Positions 11,140 through 14,100 of a stretch of DNA of 32,000 nt are shown piece after piece (within the stretch, counting starts at the first letter, position 1; the number at the start of each line of letters is the position of its first letter). The notes beneath the pieces were generated by a model. That model searched no databases. It was not told the origin of the DNA and was given only the letters and a program-made list of their open reading frames with translations. The translations under genes and the position numbers were made by a program. Location: contig NC_009925.1 of assembly GCF_000018105.1 (NCBI RefSeq), positions 4,260,001 through 4,292,000 of the forward strand. The letters are read 5' to 3'. This DNA comes from Acaryochloris marina MBIC11017. GTDB lineage: Bacteria > Cyanobacteriota > Cyanobacteriia > Thermosynechococcales > Thermosynechococcaceae.

Positions 11140-14100
11140 ATGAAAAAACAACTAACGGCAACTATTAACGATAACCAAAAGCTGGCCCTGCAATACCTTG
11201 AGGGTCGTGGCATTGACAGTGATTCACAAGCTCGACTAGGAATAAAACACACTACTCGAGAGGAGGGCGTGACACTAGGCTTCTCAAAGGCACACATCCC
11301 ATCGACAGGCGCGATCTTAGTACCTATTGATGGTACAGGCAAGGCAGGTAAATACATCGCGAAACCCTTATACCCTGACGAATCAGTTCGCAAGCACCAT
11401 GCTGAAGAACTTAAAAAAATAGAAGTTCTTAGAGCTAAAAAAGAAGGCAGGGAGCCAAGGGAAATAAGGCTATCGAAATATCTTCGCCAGACATCGGAGC
11501 ATCTAAATAGAATTGGGGCTACCTATCCCATGGTCTATAGCCCTTACCAGGTTCTTAATCCAGACAAACCAAAGCCCAAAAGTATGGCCAAGACTGTGTT
11601 AACTGAGGACCTAATTGGCTGCATCAAGCTAGCCATAATGGGTGTCCGATGTGATCACGCCGATGGGGTATGGATCGTAAAAAACGATCAGATTATCGAT
11701 GTGATCGGAGGTGCCGAGCATACAGCAAGGGATTATGATACCTATTTATGTGACGCTGACTGGGTCACCAATAGCAATGTTGCCAGAGCGACCGTCAGGA
11801 CTGCGGTCACGCTAGAGATAAAGGTGGGTAGTTTACCTGTTAGCCCTGACACCGCGATCAAGGGCGTTGATGAATGGGCAGATGCTAATCCAAGCGCAGA
11901 CCAGATTGCATTTGAAATGATGGTATTGAAAAACAGTCAAAGCGCTGCAGACTGGATAAAAACATTACTGGATGTCAAGCTGTTTCTGGTGTCCAAGGGG
12001 TTTAGTGATAGCCATTCAACGGTGATAGCTAATCAATGCCGTGACGCAACTTTGTCGGAGTTAGTTAACGCCTTTGGTGCGAATGGGACTTTAACCTTAG
12101 CCCCCGTCCTGGCTTTACCAGAAAAGTGCAAGCCCAAGATTACTGAACTAAACAGGTTAGCCAGGGGTATAGACAGTCCGATTCATGGTGCTCAGGATGG
12201 TCAAAGCGACAAGAGCGATCGCCTAGATAACTCTGAGGTTACTGATGTTCTAGTTTCGATTGTTAAATCCAGATGTGAGCTTTTTCATGACGCTGAGGAG
12301 CAAGTCTATGCGGATGTTGAAGTCAATGGATGTCGGCATACCTACCCTGTAGAGGGGCGAGAATTTTCTAGGTGGCTTACCCATGCTTTATACAAAGAAC
12401 ATGAGCAATCGCCCAGCAGCGAGGTAATGAAGTCCGCCCTCAATACCGTTATTTCTATGGGGGTTTTTGATGGAGTTGAACGCAAGGTCTGGATTAGAAC
12501 AGCGAAACTTGGCGGCACAATCTATATAGATTTATGCAACGAGAAATGGCAGGCGATAGAGGTCGATTCGCGAGGTTGGCGGATTGTAGATCGGCCCCCA
12601 GTAAGGTTCTTGCGTCCCCCCGGCACATTGTCATTGCCTACCCCAGAAGCAGGCGGAGATATCTCAGAGCTTCGAGACTTGATGGGGCTGAGTGGACAGG
12701 AAAATGAGCAGGTCTGGCTCTTGTTGCTCTGGTTCACTCTGTTCTGTTATGTACCCGAAAAAACTTACCCAGTGCTGTTCTTGACAGCACCGAGAGGTAG
12801 CGCTAAATCGACCAAAGCTGAACAACTTAAGAGCTTCATCGACCCATCCAAAGCCCCATTGATTGGCCTAAAAACCGATCGACAAGCCATGGGGGTGGCG
12901 GGCCGCCGCCGTTGGTTCTTGGTCTATGACAACGTCTCCAGCATCAGCCCAAATGCCAGTGACATAATCTGCCAAGTTGCAACGGGGTTCGGTTACTCCA
13001 CTCGCACTCTGTTTACAACAATGGACGAGACAATTGTCGAATTTACTCGACCACAGGCTATAACAGCGATTGATCATGTTGTAGCTCGAGATGATTTAGC
13101 AGACCGAACGCTGGTGGTTCCTCTGCCAAAAATCTCGGATGATCAGCGCAAAACCAAGCAAGAGCTGGACGAATCCCACGCTGAGTCGGCACCCGGAATT
13201 TTAGGTGCGTTGATGAGTCTTTTAAGCGGGATAATCGCAAACTTACCCAATGTTCAATCTGAATGGTTACCCAGGATGGCTGATTTTGGGTTGTTCTGCA
13301 TGGCTTCAGAAAAGCCCCTAAAGCTTACTGATGGGACGTTCGAGCGAGTCTTCAAAGCTAACCGGCAGCAGGCTCAAGAGGCCGTTCTGCATTCTTCGCC
13401 ATTTGCCGAGCTACTTTTAGATTTTATGGACAAATGGTCTGGTGATCTGTACACTGCGCCCTGGGCAAAATTTTTCTCAGACTTGAAGGCGTTTGCCAGG
13501 GATACGGACCAGCCTTGGTCAAAAACTTACCCCCAGACGACTAGAGGGCTATCTAGAGCCATCAACCGATTAGCCCCAGATCTTGGCTCAGCAGGATTAG
13601 CCACAGAGGTTTGGCGAACAAAAAAAGCCAAAGGTGTCGAAATCCTCAAGATTGGTGACAACCCACCAAAAACTTCCTCCTCCGATCCCTACGGTCGCGT
13701 TGAAATATCGTCATTATCGTCACCAATCGCTGAAGCCCATATATATCAAGAAAATTCGGGTGACCGAAAAGGTGACGATAAATGCCTGAAAGATGACGAT
13801 AAGACCTATAAGGCTCAAACGCATACTCAACAAGAGCTGCGGGTTACAGGTAACGACAAGGCAGCGATAGGTGACGATACTGCAAAAGAATATAGTCACC
13901 CCACTAACCCGAGCACAGCAAGCGTTTTAGCTAAGGGTGACGATAATGACAATAAATTATCGTCACCGTATGGTCTTGGAAAACAAGAAAAAAAGACATC
14001 TTCACAAAGAAACCTTGAAGAGCTGCCTTACGAAGTCGGTGATCGGATAGTTTTCGCCAAAGGTCAGAGGGCAGACGGACGAGTCTATGAGATCACCTCA

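Follow-up and report, generated by a model that had tools for sequence, protein, structure and literature searches.

How does an integrated mobile element mark the place where its replication starts, and can the gene of its own initiator carry that mark? We addressed this question in a stretch of 32,000 nucleotides of Acaryochloris marina MBIC11017 (contig NC_009925.1, positions 4,260,001 to 4,292,000; hereafter the window, whose first letter is position 1). The window contains a 16-kb element integrated at a tRNA-Val gene (7504-23535) and flanked by two identical 49-bp copies of the 3' part of that gene. This element encodes a replication protein of 1019 amino acids, Rep (11140-14199, plus strand), whose gene bears an array of 11-bp repeats in both orientations near its 3' end (13705-13967). 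An earlier note, made from the letters of the DNA, had proposed that the coding sequence doubles as an origin, and our analysis upholds this as a well-supported reading on account of the position of the array across the family, its conservation at the DNA level and the SF3 fold of the protein. We consider it likely that the array is the replication origin of the element, composed of about 11 two-orientation iterons with the consensus GGTGACGATAA that would be recognised by Rep. This conclusion is supported by repeat statistics, by the predicted protein fold and by family-wide conservation of position and architecture, from which we infer binding by a winged-helix domain, melting, self-loading of the helicase and origin function. 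The array would therefore mark the likely replication start of this element.

An array of 11-bp repeats inside the rep gene

When both strands of the window were searched with at most one mismatch to GGTGACGATAA, 7 sites were found, 6 of them within 13714-13967, against a chance expectation of 0.31 per 32 kb for such sites and of about 0.015 for exact copies. None of 100 dinucleotide-preserving shuffles gave 7 sites. The density of the 11-mer (6 sites in 254 bp) is thus beyond chance, as had been suspected from the sequence. The number of copies depends on the mismatches admitted: two mismatches add copies at 13849 (plus strand) and 13890 (minus), and three add those at 13705 (minus), 13759 (plus) and 13945 (plus), giving 11 copies of GGTGACGATAA or its complement, 4 of them exact, 2 with one mismatch, 2 with two and 3 with three. 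The figure of about ten copies given in the earlier note therefore holds when degenerate copies are counted and fails at the stricter threshold, where just 6 remain. Copies with three mismatches are singly weak, since 97 such sites occur in the whole window and one is expected by chance about every 290 bp. This weakness is all that speaks for a chance clustering, a reading whose probability is negligible given the shuffles and the conserved position of the array across the family.

Within the element, every site with at most one mismatch falls in the array, which leaves no second cluster of the 11-mer. We also scored repeat density as 8-mer recurrence on both strands in 300-bp windows, and the highest values within the integrated element were obtained for those starting at 13694 and 13704, coinciding with the array.

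In the layout of the copies, the two outer doublets face each other. At the left end lies a minus-strand tandem doublet (13705-13724), formed by 13705-13715 (three mismatches) and 13714-13724 (exact). It is followed by three plus-strand copies at 13759-13802, spaced by 12 and 21 bp (13759-13769, three mismatches; 13771-13781, exact; 13792-13802, one mismatch), by two more plus-strand copies 21 bp apart at 13849-13880 (13849-13859, two mismatches; 13870-13880, one mismatch), and by a single degenerate minus-strand copy at 13890-13900 (two mismatches), whose reading phase is unlike that of the other copies. The right group (13936-13967) contains 13936-13946 (exact) and 13945-13955 (three mismatches) on the plus strand and 13957-13967 (exact) on the minus strand. 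A spacing of 21 bp, about two helical turns, thus occurs in three copy pairs. The outer doublets, each with 9-bp spacing, lie in 48-nt arms that are 75% complementary (inverted repeat I1). The perfect inverted pair described earlier in the right group was also found, with arms of 12 nt (13936-13947 and 13956-13967; inverted repeat I5) that are 100% complementary and have 8 nt between them.

Three observations made during these searches concern sites outside the array. The repeat-density peak of the whole window, at about 26361, lies in a host gene for an RTX/calcium-binding-repeat protein (25499-27241) and is unrelated to the array. One exact copy of GGTGACGATAA stands isolated outside the element, at 1608-1618, in a host gene for a DUF11-repeat protein (735-2789, minus strand). 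Finally, a minus-strand copy with two mismatches, GGTGTAGATAA, is located at 11120-11130, 10 nt upstream of the rep ATG; it was considered as an operator or autoregulatory site for Rep and treated as a chance match, with 6.4 such sites expected per window and no counterpart in the nearest relative of the element.

The Rep protein and a model of initiation

The rep gene was identified as an open reading frame (ORF), and its identical product is found on contigs of independent assemblies. Since the 1019-residue protein has no match in Pfam, PHROG, NCBIfam or PDB sequences, we turned to structure prediction and fold search to assign its function. With 31 homologues as input, AlphaFold2 gave a model that is confident for residues 362-838 (predicted local distance difference test, pLDDT, above 90) and disordered for residues 841-1019 (pLDDT about 30). 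Foldseek searches of the PDB with the core returned SF3 or D5-type primase-helicases, namely C962R of African swine fever virus, the protein of phage NrS-1, E5 of monkeypox virus and PriRep of the Staphylococcus aureus pathogenicity island (SaPI) SaPI5 (7OLA), with E values of about 1e-7. The SaPI5 primase-helicase had the best target-normalised TM-score among the Foldseek matches (0.59). This likeness to the SaPI Rep is structural only, phmmer giving no match for Rep among PDB sequences at E values up to 1. The predicted SF3-type helicase core extends over residues 362-769, approximately (12223-13446), is marked by invariant columns and carries a Walker A variant, PRGSAKST, in which G553 and K556 are invariant among relatives.

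Upstream of the helicase, a Toprim-like (DUF3854-like) domain with approximate bounds at residues 130-260 (11527-11919) is suggested by a beta-alpha pattern in the model and by alignment with relatives that carry the Toprim-related DUF3854, in which E156, G168 and D205 do not vary and D207 hardly does. Other relatives of Rep have AEP prim-pol, DnaG-type primase or PolA domains in place of DUF3854. The label of primase-helicase that the protein had received beforehand is fair, its helicase part being well supported by the SF3 fold matches, SaPI5 PriRep included, and its primase part plausible from the Toprim signature residues common to DUF3854 relatives.

The confident part of the model is closed by two helices (residues 775-788 and 801-817) and a beta-hairpin (820-837). 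On this secondary-structure topology, and by analogy with SaPI Reps, we propose that residues 770-838, approximately (13447-13653), form a winged-helix-like domain, the candidate iteron binder. A motif in this C-terminal domain, WP..R.L..RLRR.AP.LR..GI, is conserved across loci, and so is its arginine-rich helix, LS..LRR.AP.LR. The array starts 52 nt past the last structured core residue (residue 838, nt 13653) and is translated into residues 856-943, a disordered stretch (pLDDT about 30) that separates the folded core from a C-terminal beta-barrel. The peptides read from the repeats (ISSLSSP, KGDDK, KDDDK, GNDK, IGDDT and KGDDNDNKLSSP) are of the GDD and LSSP types described in the earlier note. 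The small all-beta domain that follows (residues 963-1015; 14026-14184) is 38% identical over 52 residues (E 3e-12) to the product of a separate downstream gene (ORF 7467-7802) of the nearest relative, a metagenomic locus that we call L001. A single-sequence model of the last 55 residues or so gave six strands with a pLDDT of 76; no significant fold match was found in the PDB, and the domain looks like a generic small beta-barrel.

Together, these features suggest the following course of events. The 16-kb element would excise from tRNA-Val, and the winged-helix-like domain of Rep, encoded directly upstream of the array, would bind the iterons. The opposed iteron groups (13705 and 13714 on the minus strand, 13936 and 13945 on the plus strand, with inner copies 21 bp apart) would place Rep oligomers on both sides, the DNA would melt and the SF3 helicase would load itself. 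The Toprim-like N-terminal domain or a host primase would then prime synthesis, and the host polymerase would copy the DNA. The array DNA would also be translated, yielding the disordered linker that joins folded Rep to the small beta-barrel domain.

It is conceivable, with a low probability, that this translation of the origin has a role of its own, giving Rep a disordered acidic GDD-type tail whose sequence is set by its own iterons and which could serve as a DNA mimic or tether regulating the winged-helix domain, or as a recruiter of partners. As hints of a functional tail, none of the three low-GC loci has its frame interrupted within the array, and many relatives read through the array to an acidic-aromatic tip (..DEF), as the window element reads through to the beta-barrel domain. 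If the proposal is true, this two-level reading would link origin sequence and initiator regulation in one stretch of DNA. The disordered tails of many relatives (P0032, P0035, P0036, P0038 and P0039) end in such conserved acidic-aromatic tips (..LDEF, ..EDEF, ..LNEF, ..DEEF), which resemble the tips through which SSB and T7 replication proteins bind partners.

Position and sequence of the arrays in related loci

To place the array in its family, we compared 32 related loci, comprising L001, two genomes, 26 viral contigs and three plasmids. In 14 of the 32, no 300-bp window anywhere in the locus is denser in repeats than the one adjoining the end of the Rep core (binomial P of about 5e-16). 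In 20 of them, at most 1% of the windows elsewhere equal the density after the core, and a two-orientation array starts 25-90 bp past it. Loci with arrays after the core come from several phyla and include one archaeal plasmid. The arrays follow a common plan, in which a tandem doublet or triplet with 9-bp spacing at +25 to +90 is followed by inner copies and then by a tandem group in the opposite orientation, both orientations being used in all arrays.

The carriers of the Rep core family are diverse, comprising integrated elements, viral contigs, bacterial plasmids and the archaeal plasmid pH6Ac (L030; 12 kb), in which eight copies of GGAGGCG stand at +30 to +294 after the core. Small replicons with a family member, namely pH6Ac, the circular contig L004 (7.9 kb) and the Streptomyces plasmid pFP11, are in keeping with an origin function of the array. 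A word-indexed search had made Rep appear as a rare family of 31 proteins, a picture overturned by an exhaustive search, in which the Rep core (window 12247-13689) retrieved 17,610 clusters at 50% identity (E at most 0.001). The family thus has thousands of members and no match to a Pfam, PHROG or NCBIfam model. The placement of an array after the core, surveyed in 32 loci, appears to hold for this very large family. As a rule, a two-orientation array 25-90 bp after the core, usually with GACG, would predict the origin and the specificity determinant in many uncharacterised mobile elements, and would also yield compact rep-ori cassettes, for example for cyanobacterial vectors.

Two of the loci have further repeats. 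The plasmid pH6Ac carries a second, denser repeat region at about 730-1100, upstream of its rep gene (1124 codons), and L003, a contig of an alphaproteobacterial metagenome-assembled genome, has perfect 77-nt inverted repeats (5220-5296 and 5579-5655) about 2.2 kb downstream of rep.

The Rep core alone is common to all 32 loci, the downstream genes varying while the array stays with Rep. The constant partner of the array is therefore Rep, and not the terminase or any other gene. This bears on the idea that some protein other than Rep, for instance the small terminase, binds the array as a packaging (pac) or partition site. The element does carry genes for the small and large terminase (TerS and TerL) 1.4-2.1 kb downstream, and pac sites can be repeat-rich, but terminase genes occur in L001 only among the 32 loci whereas the array is present in most, and the element has no ParA or ParB gene among its Pfam and library matches. 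We consider a pac or partition site highly improbable.

We then asked whether the repeats are conserved as DNA or as peptide. A peptide-level explanation would see in them a by-product of protein-level selection on an acidic low-complexity (GDD-type) peptide, without function at the DNA level. In its favour, all strong copies of the window array share one reading phase and the frame is open throughout, and since many relatives read through to the conserved acidic-aromatic tip, the tail is probably a real part of the protein. The rep ORF indeed reads through the array in the window element and in L002, L004-6, L011, L012 and L021-23. Nevertheless, the relatives also carry the DNA motif in other frames and past the stop codon: the array copies inside the rep ORF number 0 of 12 in L001, 0 of 5 in L008, 0 of 7 in L018, 2 of 12 in L007 and 3 of 10 in L028, the rest lying beyond the stop. 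Copies stand in differing reading phases in L001, L002, L004-6, L018 and L028, and in L018 no single frame is open across the whole array. In the window element itself, the inverted copies encode the unrelated LSSP peptide, and codon choice is the same in all copies (GGT GAC GAT in all three GDD, TTA TCG TCA in both LSSP). Finally, a tblastn search of the 32 related loci with the tail (residues 841-950) returned nothing, even from L001.

The DNA motif is thus kept while the tail peptide has no homologue, indicating a DNA site and not a peptide repeat. The comparison of homologues proposed in the earlier note gave the same answer, in that the peptide is not conserved and a dense two-orientation array is kept at the same place after the helicase and winged-helix core. 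A by-product of peptide selection is therefore largely refuted, and we give it very little credence. At the sequence level, the comparison shows that about 260 bp of the rep gene are constrained mainly as DNA.

The repeat motif itself differs between elements. It is GGTGACGATAA in the window, CCGAACGATAT in L001, CTGACGAT in Cohnella (L002), TCGGACG in L004 and L005, GCGGACG in L007, L008, L015, L022 and L028, CTGACGGT in L013 and L026, and GGACGCT in L021, L023 and L024. A GACG core is present in 19 of 23 arrays, compared with 8.7% of control regions, and is accompanied by the conserved arginine-rich helix of the C-terminal domain. In Rep, the hairpin adjoining the arginine-rich helix varies between loci and looks alike within iteron classes.

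The closest comparison is that with L001, whose region 2100-12300 forms a mosaic with window 7700-17751: identity reaches 93% for TerL, 83% for the resolvase, 74% for orf112 and 65% for TerS, and falls to 53% for the integrase and 50% for the Rep core. L001 is without orf268 and has several additional genes between its resolvase and TerS. All 11 of its CCGAACGATAT copies lie at 7166-7401. Over 7166-7802 the array follows rep, partly within a called ORF of 90 amino acids in another frame, and the beta-barrel gene is separate, whereas in the window one fused ORF of 1019 codons covers all three. The divergence between the window and L001 is the pattern expected if a cognate initiator-origin pair were exchanged as a module.

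Known replicons, other roles for the array and the integrated element

The closest functional model is the replication module of the SaPIs, combined with an intragenic placement as in lambda O/ori, and the array represents a known kind of Rep-iteron arrangement, now in a large Rep family without an annotation model. In SaPIs, the C-terminal winged helix of Rep binds 6-12 short iterons directly downstream of rep, and the origin is built around an AT-rich centre, with at least 2 iterons on either side and the sides pointing in opposite directions (PMC9371898). The window element resembles SaPIs, or phage-inducible chromosomal islands in general, in being integrated with an integrase and in encoding a primase-like domain fused to an SF3 helicase with a C-terminal domain that is of winged-helix type by predicted topology. 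Its 11 copies are within the SaPI range and start right after the core-coding region, each flank holds at least 2 opposed iterons (13705/13714 on the minus strand, 13936/13945 on the plus strand), as do the relatives, and between related elements a divergent Rep comes with divergent repeats. It differs in that the resemblance is one of fold, with no detectable sequence similarity to SaPI Reps, in its Toprim/DUF3854-like primase-like domain, in its repeats of 11 bp instead of 5-6 bp, and in a rep ORF that continues through the putative origin into a linker and an extra domain, where the SaPI rep stops before.

Phage lambda offers the precedent for the placement, its origin iterons lying inside the initiator gene O (PMC5043065). 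Here, too, the iterons are inside the coding sequence of the initiator, in a predicted disordered segment between folded parts. However, lambda has four 19-bp inverted repeats followed by a 40-bp A+T-rich region, and O is not a helicase and recruits the host DnaB through P, whereas the initiator here would itself be an SF3 helicase. Searches of the element with Pfam and PHROG gave no match to O-type or P-type proteins of lambda.

Among Streptomyces theta plasmids, pFP11, pFP1 and pWTY27 form a comparable class with a repA gene and an iteron locus. The basic replicon of pFP11 is reported to consist of repA and RepA-bound iterons and to replicate bidirectionally (PMC3583192). In this plasmid, a gene whose product is homologous to the Rep core (30% identity, E 1e-39) neighbours a prim-pol gene, and near the homologue we found a two-orientation array of GGGACGCAC with 21-23-bp spacing. 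Unlike that of the window, the array is non-coding and lies past the gene, at a distance of about 550 bp, and primase and Rep homologue are separate proteins.

Cyanobacterial plasmids have CyRepA, a fusion of DUF3854 and a helicase that acts as a plasmid Rep and for whose origin an involvement of sequence upstream of the ORF has been reported (PMC10079941). Rep shares with it the DUF3854/Toprim-like N-terminal domain fused to a helicase, but the helicase part of CyRepA is annotated as DEXDc and the core here has no Pfam match; Synechocystis was not among the organisms of the 29 matching records in a plasmid search with Rep. Classical iteron plasmids (RepA, Pi, TrfA) have direct repeats of 17-22 bp bound by a winged-helix Rep that recruits a host helicase, compared with the two-orientation 11-bp repeats and SF3-fold Rep of this element. 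The alpha protein of satellite phage P4 is likewise a fusion of primase, helicase and DNA-binding parts, which recognises short repeats in both orientations, and P4 replication needs two separated repeat regions, ori and crr. The element differs in having one repeat cluster, and no sequence match was found.

Several observations weigh against the array being the origin. SaPI and lambda origins have an AT-rich region, but nearest-neighbour stability calculations over the window revealed no AT-rich unwinding element that stands out, either within the array or next to it. The sole, weak candidate for easy melting is a moderately A-rich stretch adjoining the array (13975-14010). Its 40-bp duplex stability is -48 to -49 kcal/mol, where the element as a whole averages -53.7 (sd 3.4), so that it does not rank with the weakest sites, and its AT-richness is equalled in 72% of random regions. 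Nor are the arrays AT-enriched across the family, as judged from AT maxima at 23 loci, a median of 38% of random regions being equally AT-rich. Moreover, 9 of the 32 related loci have no array at the position after the core, the winged-helix assignment draws on predicted topology and analogy instead of a separate fold match, and the match of the C-terminal-domain sequence to iteron class, although suggestive, is confounded by phylogeny. The identity of the published pFP11 RepA with the homologue found here is our assumption.

Some of these points would fit an array that Rep binds for another purpose, as a copy-control or handcuffing site, an enhancer resembling P4 crr, or an operator controlling the resolvase and terminase genes that follow, with initiation taking place elsewhere. 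Besides the lack of a clear AT-rich unwinding region beside the array, such a role would accord with the distance between array and gene in pFP11, where the two do not abut, with the second repeat region of pH6Ac, and with a promoter-like match at 13946-13974 that overlaps the right group, though at chance frequency. Against it, the 11-mers with at most one mismatch are confined to the array in this element, and likewise in L001, the architecture fits experimentally defined SaPI origins, and the array stays with Rep while the downstream genes vary by locus. We therefore regard a cis site other than an origin as unlikely, and favour the array as the origin.

The tRNA-Val gene (TAC anticodon; 7478-7550, plus strand), found by ARAGORN and by Rfam (68.6 bits), is the integration target, and was the sole Rfam match. 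Its 3' part is covered by attL (7504-7552) and repeated at attR (23487-23535), both on the plus strand and both within direct repeat D1 (7504-7560 and 23487-23543, spacing 15,983 bp). Promoter and terminator scans gave matches at chance level only. Pfam and PHROG searches assigned a tyrosine integrase (7700-8845, plus strand; Pfam Phage_integrase, 1.8e-16; phrog_1 integrase, 5.6e-41), a RuvC-like resolvase, TerS and TerL besides Rep, together with unassigned ORFs and cargo. No capsid, portal or tail gene was found among the PHROG and library matches of the ORFs, many of which are unassigned, and the element may be a phage satellite or a degraded prophage. In the cargo, PADLOC returned nothing significant, and the ORF at 18827-19207 has weak matches to HEPN domains (Pfam, E 0.0035; phrog_5176, 3e-10; PADLOC HEPN_IX, 0.008); with its upstream neighbour, it may form a toxin-antitoxin or defence pair.

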